This document shows positions 8,836 through 57,394 of a DNA stretch of 64,000 nucleotides, piece after piece. Each line of letters starts with the position of its first letter. The first letter of the stretch is position 1. The stretch spans positions 9,424,001 to 9,488,000 of the forward strand of contig OX597832.1 in assembly GCA_951406725.2 (NCBI GenBank), written 5' to 3'. The notes below the pieces were generated by a model. The model made no database searches, was not told where the DNA came from, and saw only the letters and a list, made by a program, of their open reading frames with translations. This DNA comes from Octopus vulgaris (Eukaryota). The position numbers and the translations under genes were made by a program.

Positions 8836-10093
8836 AGAAAGCCTTAGCGCCTCTTTCAATATAATTACAGAAATATTATTCCATTCCTTCTAACTAACCA
8901 GTTTCAAGATAATGTTTTCTTTTTTACAGTCCTTGTATTCTTCATCACTGTGTATATCAACGTCACACAACATTTACTCAATATTTATTCTACGTTACAC
9001 AGTTCAAAAATATAGAGTAATGTGAAATCAGTTTATATCTTACTAAATACATCCTTCGGCAAATGTGCTTAAATTAACACTCACAACAACAGCGAATTCT
9101 TATGTATACACTTCGTTCAGCGTTCGTTTCAATATTGTAAGAGAAATCATTTTTGCATAAAAAAATTGAATTAAGCCTTCCGAATTCTCACTTTCTTCAC
9201 GATGACATTCATTCAATCATGAATTTTATAATATTTAGTATATGTCCCAAATAAATGTTCACTTTCTGTGCTATTTTGCATTGCTGACGCATACTAACTT
9301 TTGATAAATTGGTGACTTTTTATAGCATAACTATGCTACAAAAAGCATGTTTTGCAACCAAAATTACGACTGTGACGAAGTGTGAATAATGAATATAATG
9401 CTTCTCCGAATTAGTCACATGTGTATTAAAATAAAGAAAGCTGTTTATTATCTATCTACCCCAAAAGACTGTGTTTTTGACTCAACAACAAACTTTTACA
9501 ATTAAAATAACCTCGTAACTAGGTTGGGTCGCACAATTTTGAAGTCATTTTCCGGCAATATTTTGTTTTACTTCAAATGTATCACTTTCGTCACATGTTT
9601 CACACATGCGTAGAATTCTACTTTGACACAAGGGAAAGGCCGTAAATTTTACATTGAGCAAACTGATGATTCATTTAAAAATATTTATTGTAACCATGTC
9701 ACCAGATTTAAAAGAATCAATAAGAGACATTCAACATAAGTTGCCGATTATATATAGCGAGTGAAGGAGGCGAACATTGAGTAAAAATTAATTTCGAGGA
9801 TATACCGTCTCTGCTCCAAGGAATTCCTGCTTATTTTGTCGATCAATGAGAAGATGATTAATGGAATTTCTGAAAGTCGCTGAAGATATTTCCTTTGTTT
9901 TGTTGCTCTTAAATGTTCGAAATGAGAAGATACTTTGCGGAACTGCTATTTTATTGAGGTGTGCCTATTTATTACCCGATGAGATACATCTGTACAGCCG
10001 GATGCTCCTGCACAAGGTGTTAAGTGCCCCATCCCTGAGAGATCGATGCTAGACATGTCGAAAGAAGTCTCGTGATTAATAATAAATTTTCGA

Positions 10094-24711: not shown

Positions 24712-25130
24712 GCAAGTCGTTGAGCTGGCAGAAACGTTAGCACGCCGGGCGAAATGCTTAGCGGTATTTCGTCTGTCTTTACGTTCTGAGTTCAAATTCC
24801 GCCGAGGTCGACTTTGCCTTTCATCCTTTCGGGGTCGATTAAATAAGTACCAGTTACGCACTGGCGTCGATATAATCGACTTAATCCGTTTGTCTGTCCT
24901 TGTTTGTCCTCTGTGTGTTTAGCCTCTTGTGGGTAATAAAGAAATAGGTATTTCGTCTGCCGTTACGTTGTGAGTTCAAATTCCGCCGAGGTCGTCTTTG
25001 CCTTTCATCCTTTCGGGGTCGATTAAATAAGTACCAGTTACGCACTGGGGTCGATATAATCGTCTTAATCCGTTTGTCTATCCTTTTTCGCCTCCTCTGT
25101 GTGTAACCCCTCGTGGGTAGTAAAGAAATA
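24712..25130 (+). mobile_element. SINE family B with tandem duplication of the body
   Basis: gagctggcagaaacgttagcacgccgggcgaaatgc, followed by two units of about 184 bp, each starting ggtatttcgtctg. Confidence 0.9.
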
Positions 25131-25656
25131 TGTATAATATGTTAACAGCATTATAATTAAGAAAGTAAATAAGTTATGTGTTATAGTTATTCTGTATATC
25201 GAGCATTACACAGCGATATATTGTCTCCATTACAAGATACGACCTATTACGAAAAGGTAAACAATGACAAAAAATAACAGACACTAACTAAACTGAACAC
25301 ACTCATCGCTGACCACAAGAAGTTTAAAAAACAAAGGATGTGTCTACCTGACCCATTTTGGTTGCAAGACTAGCTACTTTTATTGTCTCTCCAAAATCCA
25401 TAAGAATCAAACTATGAAGAATGCATGTGAAGAACCGCGTTAAAGTTGAATAAACATACGATATCACATCGACCTTAAATTCAAACCAAATCGTAGCAGT
25501 CCTGAACTGAGGGACACACATACTCAGCAACTCCTTTTGGTAGTGTCACTACTTGTTCACTCAACCGTGTCAGCCTTAACTTACGACGCCAAACATTGGA
25601 CGTAGCACAGATCCTACAAAAATTTCTAAGACCAGTCATATGACTATCTTCTACCA

Positions 25657-44545: not shown

Positions 44546-44550
44546 ATATG

Positions 44551-44629
<79 letters not shown>

Positions 44630-44644
44630 GTAAATATATATATA

Positions 44645-45300
44645 TTCCAGTCGAGAGATTCCCACACTATTATCCTTCTCTTCTCCACTTTTGCCCGACC
44701 CCACCTTCAATACTGCTGTCCACTGTGGTCTCCCTACACAAAACAAAATATTATGAGAATTGAAGCTCCCCGAAGGTCAATCACAAAAAAGATAGATGGC
44801 ATGTCAGACCTTGACTACTGGGGTAGACTAGAGAAGCTGAAACTGTATTCACTCCAACGACGCCGTGAACGCTACATTATCTGTATGATGTGGAAAATAT
44901 TCCATCAGCACTGTCCGAATGATGTTGGCATCACCTTCAAAATACATCCTAGGGTTGGACCACGTGCAATCCGTCCACAACAAAAATCTAAATCGCATCA
45001 CATAACGACAATACGGCACAACTATTTCACCTCAATTGGACCCGCTCTCTTCAACATTACACCAGGACACATCAAAAAAGAAACTGACCACACAAAATTC
45101 AAGAAGTCTTTGGACGAATTCCTTCAAACAGTCCCGGACAAACCACCCACTACCGGATATGTCTCCGCAAACAATAACTCTCTGCTCGAATGGGCCTTGG
45201 TGCCCAAATCCTGAATTGAAAGACGTCGCCAGGTGGTGCTATTAAGTTAGACATGGCCTGGGCCAATACTGGCCGAAACCTTTCTAAGTTATCCTAAGTT

Positions 45301-48689: not shown

Positions 48690-49075
48690 GCATGTGCAAA
48701 AAGCATTTAAGTGGTTTGATTCACAATAATGGTGGTATCCCGGCTTTGTACAATCTACAGCTAGAGATAATTGTTTCCATTGGCTTGATAGATATTTCTA
48801 GATGTCTAGATGCTTCCTTGCTTCTCCCACACGGATGTCTGCATGAATTGATCGATGCTTTATTCTTTGCTTCTTTGGTAATGTTGAAAGGGCAATTTCT
48901 TCAGTGGCTGTTACGAGATTATTATATTGTGTTTCAATGTCGTCAGTATGCTCTGTGAGCATTTCAAATCGGTTTTTAACATCTACTGCAAATGAGTGTG
49001 CTAGGTCTTTATCTGATGATACATTGGATGAGTCCATCTGTTTCATGTGGTTTGGAATTGGTTTTGTTTGTAGTC
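48690..49075 (-). mobile_element. RTE-like LINE fragment (EN-RT linker)
   Basis: LAHSFAVDVKNRFEMLTEHTDDIETQYNNLVTATEEIALSTLPKKQR fits the NRF..L / A.E.L pattern of RTE ORFs. Confidence 0.6.
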
Positions 49076-49084
49076 TAGGCTGAG

Positions 49085-49500
49085 GCAATGCGTACCTGTT
49101 GTGTGCGTTGCACTTGTTTGAAGTGGCAAAGCGAAACAATAGGAGAACAGAGAGGAAGTAATAGAAAAGAGAGAAAGAAAGAGACAGTGAATGGTGACGG
49201 CGTTCGTTTTGTGTTTCTAAATGTTTCAGAGAGGACGTAAGAGAGTAAAAAAGAGAGTGAGAGAGACAGTAAGAGATTGAGAGAAACAGTAAGTGGTGAC
49301 GGCGTTCGTTTTTTGTTTTTAAATGTTTATCACGCAGCAAGAGAAGTGGGTACATAGATACATATACACATTTTTAAATTGTTAAAACAAAAGCGGGAGA
49401 GAAGACGGACACAAAGTAAGAGAAAGAGAAAGAGAGAAAGTGTAAGAGACAGAAGATTCATAAATCCAAAGAAAAGCTCTTAGATACATAGACAGAGCAC
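49085..49500 (+). repeat. Purine-rich repeat with two ~100-bp-spaced direct units
   Basis: tggtgacggcgttcgtttt..taaatgttt occurs at about 49192 and 49293. Confidence 0.7.
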
Positions 49501-49799: not shown

Positions 49800-50522
49800 T
49801 ATTTCGTTCTTTTGCATTTCAATTTGTACATTTCTGCCCAGAAATTTTCAACAACTGCACTCCAAAAGAAATGGGAAAACGAGTAGTTTTATCTCCTAAA
49901 AGTTCTGACTCTCTTACAATAAATTAACACAGTTTTTAATGTTATACCAGAGGCGCTTAAAACGTACTTCAGCACATATTCAGTGTCCTGCAATAATGAG
50001 GAGAAGGTTCAGAACTATCCATTTGAATTCATAAACTCACCCACTCCTATCCGGTATGCCTCCTCATTGCCTCAACTTAAAAGTAGGGGCCATTGTAATG
50101 TTGCTAAGAAATGTTTTGGATCAGTCAAGGGTTATGTAATGGAACTCGCATGAAAGTGCAAATACTTCATGAACATTGTGTAGAGTCATCATTAGTAACA
50201 GGCTCCAACAGAGCTCGTACCGTTTTAATTCCTTGAAATAAACGTGCTCCAAGAGATACAAATATTCCATTCACACTAATCAGACTTCAGTTTCCACTTC
50301 GACTTGCATATTCAATGACAATTAATAAAGCTCAAGGGCAAACATTTGAAAAAGTTGGATTACATTTGCCTGAACCGGTATTTCCTCGTGGCCAATTATA
50401 TGCCACATTTTCAAGAGCATGAGCTATGAACAATATCATCGTAAGAGTTATGATACTCAATTGGGATGCCACACAAGGACAAATCATGGTGTGACATGCA
50501 CACAAAATATTGTCTACCATGT
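49800..50522 (+). mobile_element. Helitron PIF1-type helicase C-terminal remnant
   Basis: RVVLSPK..KTYFS..NYPFEFIN, SGMPPHCLNLKVGAIVMLLRN, GLCNGTR and LQFPLRLAYSMTINKAQGQTFEKVGLHLPEPVFPRGQLYATFSRA; frameshifted. Confidence 0.9.
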
Positions 50523-50700
50523 AGTAATGTGGGGAAGACCACCGCATGAGCTAGCATCACCAGCACACCAGCCACTCCAACATTACTCATCCACATTACA
50601 CCTTTAAAATCGGGGAACCAGTTAAGGCCCTGCAGGATCTCTCTAGGCATACCAGCAAACCACAAAATCGCGCCAGCCAGCATCATTACTACCGCCAAGC

Positions 50701-50750
<50 letters not shown>

Positions 50751-50789
50751 TATGTGTGTGTGTATGTATGTATTATGTAAGTGTGTGCA

Positions 50790-51000
50790 TTTGTGTCTGC
50801 GTTTGTTCCACCACAAACATTGCTTGATAAGCGACGTTGGTGTGTTTGCAACCCTGAAAATTAGTTGTTCAGCAGAAGAGACAGGGAGAATAAACACCAG
50901 GCTTACGGGGAATAAGTCCAGGGGCTCAATTTCTTCGGCGGAAGAGTGATGCTGTAGCATGGCCACCGTCGAATGACTGAAACAATTACAATAATGAAAG
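50790..51000 (+). mobile_element. SINE family E, 3' half
   Basis: cattgcttgataagcgacgttggtgtgttt..agcatggccaccgtcgaatgactgaaaca. Confidence 0.75.
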
Positions 51001-51179
51001 AATACCAGAAAAAAAACATTACGTACCACTAATCCAAGAAGGCTCTTTCAATACGCACGATGTATTTTAAGGTTAAATAGTAATTCAGATTACGTTTGTA
51101 AAACTAAGATAATTTGTTTGGATTATATAGTCATGGGTGTTACATTACTTTCAATATTCTGTAACTCTCACAATACACT

Positions 51180-51328
51180 TTTCTAGGTCGGAGATTTTCG
51201 CAGGGAGGGGGGCAGTTGATTAGATCTATCCCAGTGCACAACTGGTACTTAATTTATCGACCCCGAAAGGACGAAAATTACAGTCGTCCTCGGCAGAATT
51301 TGAACTCATAACATAAAAATAGGCGGTC
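51180..51328 (-). mobile_element. SINE family B, partial
   Basis: actggtacttaatttatcgaccccgaaagga..cctcggcagaatttgaactca. Confidence 0.8.
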
Positions 51329-51431
51329 ATAATATGCAAACATTCCTCATGACAGTAGTACACTGTTTACAGATGCTTACACGTTTTATGTTTTCCGTGA
51401 ATTTTTCATGGGTCTAGCTAGTTATTATTAA

Positions 51432-51486
<55 letters not shown>

Positions 51487-51488
<2 letters not shown>

Positions 51489-51807
51489 TGAAAGAGAGAG
51501 CAGCGCATGCCATCAAAGTGATACTGGGTTGAAATAGACGAAGCTTAGTATAACCATTATGACTACGGGGCACATGCATCACAACCATATATGCGCGACA
51601 TGGGGATCTCCCCTCAAGATAAACAGTTCATAACCTTGCAGTTGTGGACCAGTGAGCATTTTCTTCAGGTCCAGTAGACCACCCCGCTCAAATGGTCCTT
51701 GAATAAGGGTTATTTAAGGATGTTGAACGAAAAACCTACGTTCCCAGACGTTATTTATTCAAACCCCAAAGAATACTTCTAAACACATGGCTATTATGTT
51801 CCCCCAA
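51487..51807 (-). mobile_element. ~320-bp non-coding element embedded in (TAA)n
   Basis: Block flanked by (ATT)n on both sides with no ORF. Orientation is inferred from the longer TAA tract. Confidence 0.55.
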
Positions 51808-53001
51808 TTATTATTATTATTTTTAATATTGTTGTTGTTTTTGTTATGCTGTTGTTGATGTATTTGTTTTGCCATAATTTTTAATGTTATCAACATCATC
51901 TGCCTTTCTGATTATCTTTGTCATCAGTTCAACTGCGCCATTATTGATATTGATATTACCTAGATTACTATACACGGGATGCATTACTAAAATCAATAAT
52001 AAACACCCACCAATTACAAACATAAGACTGTGCGTCGATAAATCAATTGTTAGCACACAGCTTCATATTTGCCTTTGTCTACGTCTGTAAATAGTTTATT
52101 CTTTCACTGATATCTCATTTTCTTAATATGACTCCACTCAAAATGTTTGCTAATCACTGATACAACAAATGAAATCAAATACCGATCTCAACACCTACAG
52201 TATTGATAATAATCTCCACCCTCTTAATCCTTTTTCCCTTATTATGTCTATTTAGCGAAAATGAATTGGAGGTGCTTTGCGAAGTAATAGAGAGCTCTTA
52301 CAACGTTATTTCAGCAAATAAATCGAAAGATACTTTCAGAAACCGAATCACGACTGTTTTTACAATGCACACACTTCGATGCATTTCAACATACAGAAAC
52401 ATATAGGCGCACATACATAGTCTCATGCGTGCATATATACGCACAGGCAAACATACACGTAAGTACACACAAGCACACACACACACACACATAAATACAG
52501 ACAAAGACTCATATGTAGTTTCTGCGTCTATTCGTGAGTGCACGTGCGTGTGTTTTTTTTGCGTGTATGTGCATGTATCCAATTTTTTTTTAATGTTTGT
52601 TGCAGAGGAATCAGAGGAATGAATTTACAGAAATATTTGAGGAGTGACAGAATATATGCCTTGTATCATTTGGACAGGCCCTTTACATACTTAATACAGG
52701 ACCACCAATATCAAACTGTAATTTTACACTGTCAGTATGAATAGAGTAATGCGAAAACCAATTGAAATACTAAAACAGACTACATCGACTTCAGCATCGA
52801 CCTCTCAAAATTATTGCATTTATGCCTACCTGAAGATGTATATTTTAAGCAACTTTAAGTATAAAGTAATAGTGTTGTCAGTATTTACACAGAGGAATAG
52901 AGCCAACTTTCTTCTGTAATTCCTTGCCTCTCGAAATTGAATATATATATATATATATATATGTATACACACATACACACACACGCATACACACACACAC
53001 A

Positions 53002-53069
<68 letters not shown>

Positions 53070-53325
53070 CAAAACTAAGGGTGAAAAAATTGGATATTAA
53101 CTTAATAATACCATCAACTTAACACCAAGTGTCTTAGCGCATAAAAAACAGGGATACAATAAAAATTTATACACAAATATTAGAGAGTGTCCACTATGTT
53201 GTCGGCTCTTGCGCTAAAAATAGATCCGCTATGGTTTCAACCACCAAAAATTGTTTCCAAGCAGAATTAGCACAACTATGAGCGTACACGAGCAGAGCAA
53301 ATGAAAAATAACAAAAATGTAGATT

Positions 53326-53404
53326 AATTCTAGACAATTGTTTTACTATTAATGAATTATGCAATTTTACTTACACAATATATCTATAGCCCATCAGTTG
53401 AATT
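53326..53404 (-). ncRNA. Type I hammerhead ribozyme, mutated copy
   Basis: aattcaa-CTGATGG-GCTAT..ATAGT-AAAAC-AATT-GTC-tagaatt. Confidence 0.7.
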
Positions 53405-53786
53405 TGTCTTGAATACAATTTACTAAACTGCACGCCAGATTTTAACATAACGTCAAACACACGTGTGGTTTAGTCGATTATATTCGCAGTTATGATTCGA
53501 ATGCCCTCATTATAGCGCGCCAAGATACCCGGAAACAAATACTGCATAAAAAATTTAATGCAGTATAATTAAAATAAGAAATAAGGGTGAACAAATTGGA
53601 TATTATTTTAATAATAATATGATTATAATGCAGTAAATTTTTTATGCAGTATTTGTTTCCGGATATCTTGGCGCGCTATAATGAGGGCATTTGAATTATA
53701 AATGCGAATATAATCCGCAAAACCACACGTGCGTTTGACGTTATGTTAAAATCTGGCGTGCGGTTTAGTAAATTGTATTCAAGACA

Positions 53787-53865
53787 AATTTTACTGATGA
53801 ACTATGTATATATTGTGTAAGTAAAATTGCATAATTCATTAGTAGCGAAACGATTGTCTAGATTT
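53787..53865 (+). ncRNA. Type I hammerhead ribozyme with intact catalytic core
   Basis: aatttta-CTGATGA-aCTAT..GTAGc-GAAA-C-gatt-GTC-tagattt; predicted cleavage after 53858. Confidence 0.8.
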
Positions 53866-54045
53866 AATCTACATTTTTGTTATTTTTCATTTGACCTGCT
53901 CGTTTACGTTCATAGTTGTGCTAATTCTCCTTGGAAACAATTTTTGGTGGTTGAGACCATAGCGGATCTATTTTTAGCGCAAGAGTCGACCACATAGTGG
54001 ACACTCTCTTATAGTTGTATATATATCTATATGTATATATATATA

Positions 54046-54116
<71 letters not shown>

Positions 54117-54117
54117 T

Positions 54118-54580
54118 CACAGCTTTAAAAGCATAATTACTCAAAATACAACACAACACGAAACCAGCTGTTCCTGCAGGGATAAAGACTTGTGCCCGCT
54201 AAATGGAGTCTGCATCACCGAGGCCATTATTTATGGAGCCACCGTCAATTCTACGACCGCTAAATTTACAGTTTCATCGAAGAGATATATGGGTTTCACT
54301 GAGGGAAATTTCAAAGCAAGATTCAACAATCCCACCTAAAGCTTCAGAAAAATTACCACATTATCTAGTTATGTGTGGTTCTTAAACGAACAAGGTGTCA
54401 TTATTTACTGAAAGATCTTAGCCAAGTGTAAACCTTATAAAAACGGTTGTGGCAAGTGTGTTCTTTGTAATATGAAAAGATGGCTCATTCGGAATAGCAC
54501 CTTGTAATCCGCTACATGTCTAAATTCAAGCAATGAATTTTTTCTATCATATCGACATATCACAAAATACTTGCTACTTG
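54118..54580 (+). mobile_element. Penelope-like GIY-YIG endonuclease remnant
   Basis: CSCRDKDLCPLNGVCITEAIIYGATV..KRYMGFTEGNFKARFNN, then TTLSSYVWFL, KCKPYKNGCGKCVLCN and LNSSNEF..RHITKYLL. Confidence 0.85.
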
Positions 54581-54915
54581 TTTTGCCCCCACCCAAGACC
54601 ATAGCTATAATCCACATTTTTATTATGTTCCACCACAATCTTCCCCATGTGTTTTAATTTACATGTTTTTATTCTTTTATACATATTCTTACATTTTTCA
54701 TTTTTCCTCTTAAATTGTGTGAATTTATACGTGTGTGTGTGTGTATGTATATATATGTATATGAGTGTAAATCTGTGTTCGGTGCATATGTGCGAGTTTG
54801 ATGTACACGTCCCCTTCATTTATACGGATATGCATATGTTTGTATACATGCGGCTGTAGGTGTGTGATAGGAGGATGTGTATATGTGTGTGTGCGCGTGG
54901 AACTGTGGATGTATG

Positions 54916-54974
<59 letters not shown>

Positions 54975-55269
54975 GTATATGTATACGCATAAATGTCTAA
55001 ATATATATGTATTGTGTTACGTCTATGCATGTACAGACGTATGTGTGTATGTATGAGGACATACATGCAAACATGTTTTCGTGAGTATGTACATGTACGT
55101 ACAAATATTGTAAGTATGTAAACATTATGAACGCAGGTGGTTTATGTCTATGTATCGTGAGAATATGTTTGTGCATGTTTTCTTTATTTTCTTTACTTTT
55201 TTACTTTTTCTACCTATTAAAGTAAATTCCCTATTATCCAATGGTCTTTCATAGTGTCTATTGCCACGA

Positions 55270-55328
55270 ATAGTCGACAAGATTGCATAGTATCTCTTCG
55301 CTCTGACATTCGAAACTACGAGTACTAT
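55270..55328 (+). ncRNA. Degenerate type I hammerhead ribozyme downstream of the GIY-YIG remnant
   Basis: ATAG-tcGACaA-gattgcatag..ctctgacattc-GAAA-CT-acg-A-GTA-CTAT: stems I and III are perfect, the first core box is mutated. Confidence 0.6.
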
Positions 55329-55372
55329 AATGACAGTTTTTTACTGTATGTTCGAAATTATAACATATATAT

Positions 55373-55445
<73 letters not shown>

Positions 55446-55959
55446 CGCACACGCTCACATATGATGTGTGTTTTACACTTTTGCGAATACCGTCTATTTT
55501 GCTTATGTCAAATCTATTTCGTCCTCTTGACAAGGGGCTCCACTTTGGCGAAGATGAACAACAAACGAGTGCATTATTTACTTTACCTTCTTCTAATACA
55601 AGCGCAACGCAAGCAAAAATAATCGTCGACTTGAGATTAGCATTAATCCTGCCTGAGCTTCAACTTCTATACATTCAAGACTAAACAAACCATGTTGTCA
55701 TAAGGATTTTTTGCCGTTGATATGTGAGGTAAACAGAAAGGTTCAAATAATTACCTGCTTTCAGAGGATTGAAACATAAGTTGTACTTGAAAGGCATGTG
55801 CATTACTCTACGTCAAATAGCAAAGTTAATACCATTCGTAAAACAAGAATACTTTGTTATGAACCTTCCATTAACATGACTATAGAAGAGACGCTACTTT
55901 ACTGGGGATGACAAATATTAGTAGTTCTTTGTTGTTTAGGTGAAGGCATTTCGAGGTGG

Positions 55960-56230
55960 TATTCAGTTGACGATCGTAGTTTCTTGAATGTGATACCTTG
56001 CCACATATTAAGTCTTTGAGCGGAACATTTAATTTCACCTTGCTCCACTCCACTCAGCCAGCAAAAATAAGATGTACCTGTATTTCAAATGAACAGTCTC
56101 ATCCCATTCTATGTCATTCTGAATCTCCTTGAGCACTACGTTAAGGTACACATGCCAGTCACTTTCTCTGCCACTTGCACGTTAATTTCACTAGCAAACT
56201 CTTCCGTTCATCGTAACCGACGGAATGCTT
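55960..56230 (+). mobile_element. Old SINE family G
   Basis: atttcaccttgctccactccactcagc..gagcactacgttaagg..ccacttgcacgttaatttcac. Confidence 0.5.
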
Positions 56231-57394
56231 TTTCTTGTCACATATGCATTTATACACACACATAAATACATACATACAAACATTTATACGGATATGCATA
56301 TGTTTGTATACGTGCGTTTATATATGTATATATATGTATGTGCATGTACGTACAAATGTTTGTACGTATGTAAACATTATGAACGCAGGTGGTTTATGTC
56401 TATGTATCGTGAGAATATGATTGTGTATATTTTCTTCATTTTTTAAAAATATTTTACTTTTTCTACCTATTAAAGTAACTTCCCTATTATACAATTGTCT
56501 TTCATGGTGTCTATTGCTACTAATAGCCACTAATATGTCATATTTCAGTTATCTTTCAAGATTTCTTGACAATAGAGTAAGATCATGTTTCTAACCTACA
56601 TCTAGGGCTCTTTCATTGGTATTTGAACATGTGTATGAAAAAGTGCAGATTTGTTTGTTTTGCGTTTCGTCTGACTTCTCATGCATAACTAGACTTGCAT
56701 AACTAGACATGCCCATATACACTTAAATGATAAAACTCTGGCAAGTTTTACAGATTTTACAATTCCTGTTATGGGTTCGATCTGTAGAATGCAAATCGAT
56801 TCTCCCCTTTCTGGATTTGAGAAGCCTCATTTCTCAAGATTCGTGTTTAAGCAGTGGGTTACTTATCCCAGTGCTCCTATAATGATATGCATGTATGTAC
56901 ATACACACAAAGCAAACCACCACCACCACCACCATCAGAGCGTCATCATCATCATCATCATCACTACCACGACGACCACCACTACCACGAAAAACCATAG
57001 CTAAACGTTATTCTGATATTGGCGTTCGAATCTTATGAACATATTGAGATTGAATAAATAAGAATGAATGAATCCTTATTGCAGTTAGATTCTCACGAAT
57101 TATCTGTTTAGTATATATGGTTTCACTTCCGCAAAATTTTGTTTGTTTCTAAAGAACAAAGAGTCTTGTTTTTCTCATGGCTTCCTTAAATTCACTTATG
57201 CGGGTGTATCTCCCGTATTCAGAATTCAGATGGTTTAAGAATGAAGACGTCCGGCGATAAGGGAAAGCAAAAGCATACAAAAACAAACGTTTTAATTTGT
57301 TGTAGTATATTGAGAATAAATAGACACGTTATTATTTATAGCATCGATGTTTTGCGAGTACCCGGAAATTATTATATAAGGAATTATAAATAGA

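Follow-up and report, generated by a model that had tools for sequence, protein, structure and literature searches.

The window analysed here, a 64,000-nt stretch of Octopus vulgaris DNA, carries two neighbouring insertions in (TA)n: a head-to-head pair of retrozyme arms and a 5'-truncated Hydra-type Penelope-like element (PLE) remnant (Table 1). The first contains two inverted arms of 388 nt each, which align without gaps at 92.3% identity (30 mismatches, 18 of them transitions), much as an earlier note on this DNA had described them; a repeat search lengthens them to 418 nt at 91%, reaching into their AT-rich ends. A 45-nt direct repeat (53066-53110 and 53572-53616, 87% identical) gives the period through its spacing of 506 bp, so that the 506-bp monomer of the earlier note stands, while the "52-bp spacer" it saw between the arms is nothing more than additional 5' sequence of the left arm, and the head-to-head junction lies at 53621/53622. 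In the sense of the ribozymes, the left arm ends at a position that recurs in the family as the "long" site, about 267 nt past the cleavage site, and the right arm ends at the "short" site and runs into (TA)n. The stretch between these sites, referred to as the tail, occurs on the left arm only and contains a motif common to sister retrozymes (CACTTGGTG...TCACCCT), with 3,941 matches in the genome vs 35 in the control. Local GC content is 33%, and none of the 10 candidate frames of the window matches Pfam at E<=0.01. The locus is an ordinary decayed copy, and its value is that of a pointer to its family.

Table 1. Features of the retrozyme insertion and its surroundings (positions in the window).
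Feature	Positions	Strand	Method
(TA)n target microsatellite, left flank	53018..53066	.	TRF
Retrozyme insertion as a whole, between two (TA)n tracts	53066..about 54020		
Left arm, 1.1 units (556 nt) of the 506-bp monomer, by ribozyme sense	53066..53621	-	
Tail, about 93-100 nt from short to long 3' end site	53066..53158	-	
Gap-free inverted arm, left copy	53182..53569		alignment
Degenerate type I hammerhead, CUGAUGG core, AAAA for GAAA, predicted inactive	53326..53404	-	
Second unit of left arm begins, repeats 53066-53110	53572..53621	-	
Right arm, 0.8 unit, 5'-truncated, by ribozyme sense	53622..54020	+	
Gap-free inverted arm, right copy	53622..54009		alignment
Type I hammerhead, core letters intact, stems decayed	53787..53865	+	
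(TA)n microsatellite separating retrozyme from PLE remnant	54018..54113	.	TRF
Separate 5'-truncated Hydra-type Penelope-like remnant, ends in (TA)n	54112..55365	+	
Decayed hammerhead-like motif of the remnant, TCGACAA ... GAAA CTACGAG TA	55270..55330	+	read by eye

A type I hammerhead is present in each arm, as had been noticed. The plus copy keeps the type I core, with CUGAUGA at 53794-53800, GAAA at 53847-53850 and a GUC ending at 53858, arranged around stem I (53787-53793/53859-53865), a stem II domain of 46 nt (53801-53846) and stem III (ACGAUUGU); cleavage is predicted after C53858, in agreement with the 3' product start at 53859 given before. Its changes comprise an A-C mismatch at the base of stem II, others in stems I and II, and one in the loop of stem III. 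The minus copy is without core bases, reading CUGAUGG (53397-53391) and AAAA instead of GAAA (53344). The canonical ribozyme that the earlier note rebuilt by merging both copies proves to be the family majority in stems I to III and in the core. The A-C mismatch of stem II is not private to this locus: the A occurs in 17 of 55 aligned segments and is an inherited subfamily variant. Later mutation, amounting to about 5% per arm, would have disabled the minus ribozyme and probably also the plus one. In a scan of 50000-57000 that covered these decayed window copies, the Rfam hammerhead models, proposed earlier as a check, are absent among the 55 matches at E<=5, a miss that the long stem II is likely to have caused.

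The GIY-YIG remnant had been linked to the repeat, a connection that has to be given up: the remnant was inserted separately, into a target of like kind, and is self-contained, with its own 3' UTR, its own hammerhead-like motif and its own TA end. Its frame, which extends from 54112 to about 54620 with three stops and without an RT, matches residues 537-704 of the open reading frame of an autonomous family (family A, described below) at 56.5%, beginning at residue 537 of about 708. When the translation is read against PMC8557442, the CxCX5C linker, the lack of CCHH and the TA flanks are those of the Hydra clade. The 3' UTR beyond the frame is homologous to other Hydra-type copies and reaches a TA end near 55365, and the hammerhead-like motif, undetected by the descriptor scan, matches the motif and its position in family A and in paralogous copies (L082).

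Searching the 2.8-Gb genome with the right arm yielded 1,853 candidates, of which 40 were scored, the best 30 loci being 87-93% identical. Exact matches in the genome to a core pattern whose spacer is 45-60 nt number 2,330, vs 0 for the reversed control, and the window hammerhead is therefore not a product of chance. Most of the 100 matches listed of these 2,330 belong to a young subfamily organised in tandem arrays with as many as 13-14 units of 534 bp, whose monomer is 70% identical to that of the window; across the family group, monomer lengths are 493, 506 and 534 bp. The monomer is non-coding, as the open frame of family A matches only the flanks of retrozyme loci and never the monomers. 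Hammerheads in at least two consecutive units, one criterion for a retrozyme, are found in the family, whereas the window locus has one ribozyme per strand. The full core is kept in 28 of the 33 ribozyme-covering segments, from 29 loci picked by BLAST alone. In the family, all four bases occur at core position 7, and the stem II domain measures 45-52 nt.

Covariation was assessed in 61 distinct copies selected by the core pattern, a set in which the invariance of the core is a matter of construction. Paired cells amount to 88.4% vs 82.4% after shuffling (0 of 500 shuffles) and 30-37% in slid controls, and double-change cells number 108 vs 41.9 (0 of 500); two of the five measures failed to exceed the shuffles in these 61 copies (102 and 270 of 500). 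Changes on both sides are seen in 8 of 11 pairs of stem I and 3 of 5 pairs of stem II, and the inner hairpin of stem II shows one-sided changes only. The earlier reading as a retrozyme family linked to Penelope is supported, its type I hammerhead being conserved and covarying and its stem II long. In 17 of the 61 copies the basal position of stem II, 10.1-11.1, is unpaired, so that some lineages have spread with a weakened stem II.

The young monomer folds with a z of -7.2 (-3.4 for the window monomer), a value compatible with expression as linear and circular monomer RNA. Stems I and II are predicted in the young monomer with probabilities of 0.73-1.0, and the 2-bp stem III with a probability of about 0. 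PLE hammerheads reportedly cleave as dimers. The palindromic stem III is predicted to form an 8-bp intermolecular duplex of -6.4 kcal/mol, by which the family ribozyme would fit the dimer-type hammerhead design with palindromic stem III described in PMC4209133.

The apex of the stem II extension bears the letters GTRAGT, in the window at 53817-53822 (+) and 53374-53369 (-), and so do 60 of the 61 family copies. GTRAGT is a splice-donor consensus. An intron inside the ribozyme was considered and kept as a lead only, because several lineages lack the candidate acceptor, an AG lying about 95 nt downstream, and a G-U pair also accounts for the A/G variation at this place.

The ends of the insertions were surveyed in 93 non-redundant copies lying fully within the sampled loci. 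Two-armed insertions account for 46 of the 93, and all 46 are head-to-head, none being convergent. Among the 38 two-armed insertions that could be classified, 36 combine one long and one short end, one is short+short and one long+long, and the remaining 8 have one unclassifiable end; under even odds, the binomial probability of this pairing is 2.7e-9. Single-armed copies divide into 24 long, 22 short and 1 other. In the sense of the ribozyme, 5' ends are distributed at random and 3' ends cluster at two sites. Counted from the point of cleavage, these sites lie about 161-165 and 291 nt downstream in the young family; in the subfamily of the window the distances are about 156-178 and 267 nt. The insertions target (TA)n, with a TA run on at least one side in 89 of the 93, and these flanks mask any target-site duplication. 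The family thus displays 5' truncation, a head-to-head inverted copy and a tail at one end, that is, the Penelope-like insertion architecture to which the earlier note had attributed the inverted structure. A tail on one of two inverted pLTRs is already known for PLEs (PMC8557442, PMC3846280), and for a PLE protein it has been described that it cleaves and extends both strands, that it is a predicted dimer and that two internal RT starts define the tail (PMC11167929). The same source also reports no strand preference for the RT start site, that cleavage is not needed in vitro and that RNA ends at the cleavage site were not found.

Haplotypes were compared at 15 young loci, picked for their tandem or two-armed look. 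Between units of the same arm, 274 of 101,493 compared bases differ (0.27%); between the two arms of a locus the figure is 107 of 44,347 (0.24%), and between loci the difference is 2.3%. All nine two-armed arrays carry the haplotype of the locus in both arms, although in two of them (L062 and L065) this equals the family majority. Among older copies, 4 of 6 arm pairs are sisters at support 96-100 in a tree of 49 segments and one pair falls within a three-leaf clade. The window arms are not resolved as sisters in this tree, with terminal branches of 0.048 and 0.051: they are 8.4% apart vs a median of 11-12% to 42 other copies, among which they rank as third and sixth nearest to each other, and they differ at several polymorphic sites. 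The shared haplotypes could equally stem from gene conversion, from unequal crossover or from one dominant source locus.

The most probable reading of the locus, to which a probability of about 0.7 is given, is an old and decayed head-to-head insertion of a non-LTR retrozyme in (TA)n, likely made in trans by a PLE that would have primed both strands on one RNA. According to this model, whose array transcription, cleavage, circularisation and PLE mobilisation are drawn from retrozyme and PLE biology (PMC7229834), tandem transcripts would cleave themselves as dimers via the palindromic stem III and then circularise, and the RT/endonuclease of a Hydra-type PLE would act on the retrozyme RNA in trans. 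The enzyme would cut both strands in (TA)n, and two primers, one per target strand, would be extended on a single RNA, giving one cDNA that begins at the long site and a second that begins at the short site. Each cDNA would be of random length, in young arrays amounting to several rounds of the circle, and the two cDNA ends would then be joined bluntly. More tentatively, and with odds slightly short of even, each two-armed array may be the product of one reaction, in which a dimeric Hydra-type PLE primes both (TA)n strands on the same circular RNA at two starts and copies round the circle. If true, this would constitute genomic evidence for PLEs mobilising animal retrozymes by rolling-circle reverse transcription, and it would explain in general why Penelope-like elements have an inverted pLTR and a tail on one side only. 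L1-style non-overlapping twin priming is a known model for inverted copies, and it was rejected here because the junction points are not at the start site of the other arm.

Of the other explanations, the one that survives best, although it is unlikely, is fold-back or self-priming, in which one strand is made or supplied at the outset and serves as template for the other arm. This directly gives head-to-head polarity and identical haplotypes, and self-priming on an antisense template has been proposed for a rotifer Penelope from palindromes at inverted junctions (PMC3846280); in one array (L066) the junction indeed sits within an internal palindrome, with an overlap of 31 nt. However, 11 of 13 junctions overlap by 0-7 nt, the remaining one having a 17-nt gap. 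Besides, a copied arm should be no longer than the strand it was made from, and yet the arm that is longer by several units is sometimes the long-end and sometimes the short-end one: the short-end arm exceeds the other in 4 of 13 cases, with the long-end arm measuring 6810 vs 345 nt in L061 and the short-end arm 4307 vs 2360 nt in L062. The copy would furthermore need to halt exactly at the other fixed site within its template.

Satellite growth appears rather improbable. It holds that a single terminal repeat or monomer inserts and expands by unequal crossover, so that a circular RNA template is unneeded, a model discussed in bioRxiv 10.64898/2026.07.22.740005. The 1.1 units of the left arm in the window would be enough to seed such an expansion, and in L061 one variant is common to 4 non-adjacent units. 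Against this, the most uniform array, L062, with one substitution in 14 segments, already comprises about 12 units across both sides of the inversion, and the older 506-bp copies examined have under about 1.5 units per arm. The arrays are also dispersed, each with its own haplotype and with precise PLE-type ends, and satellite growth addresses array length while leaving these ends unexplained.

A functional RNA switch kept by the host, with the antisense arm preventing cleavage and supplying a substrate to ADAR or Dicer, is very improbable. The sequestration suggested in the earlier note is borne out in silico, the antisense arm pairing with the ribozyme region at a mean probability of 0.92 within a predicted hairpin of about 373 bp (-604.6 kcal/mol) in the read-through transcript, and many two-armed loci genome-wide make a family dsRNA plausible. 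The locus-specific regulatory role attached to it did not hold, as about half of the surveyed insertions are two-armed and the window arms are as decayed as other copies. The minus copy has lost core bases, and the plus copy fails to fold in the prediction, its stems I and II having a pairing probability near 0 even without the antisense arm. A gene matching Pfam is absent among the candidate frames of the window, and among inherited variants A>G changes are not significantly enriched (12 versus 8, p=0.11; 16 versus 16, p=0.37). On this reading the long hairpin is a by-product of insertion. Finally, the view of the repeat as an inverted pLTR belonging to the neighbouring GIY-YIG element, all of it forming one truncated autonomous PLE, is close to untenable despite the distance of about 95 bp, the (TA)n target in common and the strand shared with the right arm, since an RT and GIY-YIG open frame between pLTRs is missing, the monomer being non-coding and the neighbour, which sits 3' of the end of the arm with an end region of its own, a separate insertion with DNA similarity at 0 of 28 other retrozyme loci.

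Two autonomous families, candidates for the Hydra-type PLE that would act in trans in the preferred reading, were found in the same genome. Family A, found by searching with the GIY-YIG remnant, has a 717-codon open frame with RWK, DKT and CxCX5C, for which Pfam assigns no family and which has 1,037 unnamed homologues; at L107:2323-4848 (G000:C1:101157500-101164000) it is young and Hydra-type, with a tandem period of 2.6 kb. Its hammerhead is a variant with a CCGAAGA core and an extra U ahead of GAAA, present in 3,249 copies. Family B was found via a divergent RT adjoining one retrozyme copy, and its 899-codon frame, 39% identical to that of A over the RT, contains DKT, CxxC and CPH and a long low-complexity linker; its young representative at L257:941-8189 (G000:C1:119513500-119522000) has a period of 3.6 kb. 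The family B hammerhead, with 3,190 copies, combines a palindromic stem III of 8 nt with a stem II domain of 47-55 nt (55 nt at L257, where the lower helix covaries visibly), so that the long stem II emphasised in the earlier note is genuine but not unique to the retrozyme. The pairing of a long and a short end was read by eye in 8 of 8 loci of family A and 8 of 8 of family B, loci that were partly picked as two-armed and from which three ambiguous ones (L273, L095 and L105) were omitted. Arms versus loci diverge by 0.39% versus 1.04% in family A, which is too uniform for this contrast to discriminate at most loci, and by 0.32% versus 7.6% in family B.

Homology between the pLTRs and the retrozyme was tested for these two families. 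Local scores of the retrozyme monomers against the family A pLTR are 33-44, with shuffle maxima of 37-41, and against that of family B 25-32 versus 36-44, the latter also without an nhmmer match; no homology was found in either comparison. A partner search in 41 loci of other hammerhead motifs had as its sole match a retrozyme copy in a flank, and the tail-motif matches listed (100 of 3,941) are retrozyme-type sequences. On its ribozyme architecture alone, family B is a slightly better partner candidate. At L193:1480-2621, the RT frame of family B continues directly into the 3' half of the retrozyme at a short shared motif. This chimera has two near-identical copies, L270 and L271, on C1, and it has 3.9 kb in common with the intact copy L264, including upstream flank. 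A retrozyme-PLE template switch was considered for it, but rearrangement of the duplicated segment explains it equally well, and the chimera is ambiguous.

Non-LTR retrozymes, PLE hammerheads, inverted pLTRs and tails have all been described before. The metazoan non-LTR retrozymes of coral, mussel and axolotl (Cervera and de la Pena 2020, PMC7229834) and of Xenopus (bioRxiv 10.64898/2026.07.22.740005) resemble the family in being tandem repeats of low GC that are non-coding and have a single type I hammerhead in each unit, whose short palindromic stem III suits dimer cleavage, in their highly self-paired monomer, in their thousands of copies and in their co-occurrence with PLEs. The family differs from them in its stem II domain of 45-52 nt, and its monomers of 493-534 bp exceed the 150-450 bp of PMC7229834, which is a reported range and not a strict criterion. 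The available text of both sources makes no mention of head-to-head arrays with fixed long and short ends, and the main text of the bioRxiv report does not mention octopus. In these two sources, the involvement of PLEs in the spread of retrozymes has been inferred from co-occurrence and pLTR homology, and in bioRxiv 10.64898/2026.07.22.740005 a PLE origin is argued from vertebrate data. Insertions of EN+ PLEs (PMC3846280, PMC8557442, PMC11167929) likewise show 5' truncation, partial tandems, an inverted 5'-truncated head-to-head copy, a tail at one end, a hammerhead near the 3' end and an AT-rich target. Unlike these, the family is without an ORF and its tail measures about 93-130 nt vs 30-40 bp, both of its arms can be multi-unit, and its rule of one long and one short end has been counted and linked to a shared haplotype.

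Regarding the Hydra clade of PLEs (Craig et al. 2021, PMC8557442), both the neighbouring remnant and family A share its CxCX5C, its (TA)n target and its lack of CCHH, family A also having RWK, DKT and a hammerhead and the remnant a decayed hammerhead-like motif, and family B shares DKT, CxxC and CPH, with a long-stem-II hammerhead. The supplement of PMC8557442 lists a Hydra element with a hammerhead in Octopus bimaculoides, and the published hammerhead of Hydra-1_oBim has a sequence unlike that of either family A or family B. Seven Hydra clade rows of that supplement give a stem II plus loop of about 12-23 nt. Plant PLE hammerheads are listed with loops of 29-35 nt in stem II. Additionally, 235 Rfam hammerheads have been counted in the giant squid (PMC6962438). 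In full-text searches of the openly accessible literature, no description of a cephalopod retrozyme or of paired-end head-to-head retrozyme arrays was found, and the end rule is useful at the level of the family. The questions that matter are which enzyme moves animal retrozymes, whether their arrays are long from the start, through a circular RNA, or expand later in the manner of satellites, and, further, how PLEs produce inverted copies with a one-sided tail. Since a very young retrozyme coexists with two young intact PLE families under the same end rule, these questions become testable with existing assays.

Other features were observed in the window and in the genome. The window contains open frames at 44546-45214 (+) and 48798-49373 (-) that resemble LINE fragments, neither matching Pfam at E<=0.01, as well as two tandem copies of a 184-bp unit with 90% matches at 24763-25135. 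The descriptor scan also reported CCGATGA ... GAAA ... TC at 9976-10070 (+), with a 5-bp stem I and a 77-nt insert, which may be due to chance or represent a further hammerhead family. Elsewhere, a 493-bp relative of the retrozyme (L210:1127-3030) combines a CCGAAGA core, the same core change as in autonomous family A, with a GUA site, and a diverged tandem member of the retrozyme group (L242:2950-3826; nhmmer E 4e-19) adjoins a family B end. Hammerhead cores with a short stem II number 4,132 in the genome vs 360 in the control and include tandem families of 353 and 545 bp. Tandem hammerhead repeats of 545, about 564-571 and 353 bp were seen at six loci (L208, L209, L212, L213, L225 and L226), several of them head-to-head, and the 545-571 bp group has CACTTGGTG...TYACCCT just ahead of its end, in common with the retrozyme family. 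Lastly, two near-identical head-to-head hammerhead pairs lie 4.45 kb apart at G000:C1:8394609-8399099 and 8767710-8772199 (L160-L163, L215); their flanks match, a long ORF between them is absent, and they are probably a segmental duplication of another family.
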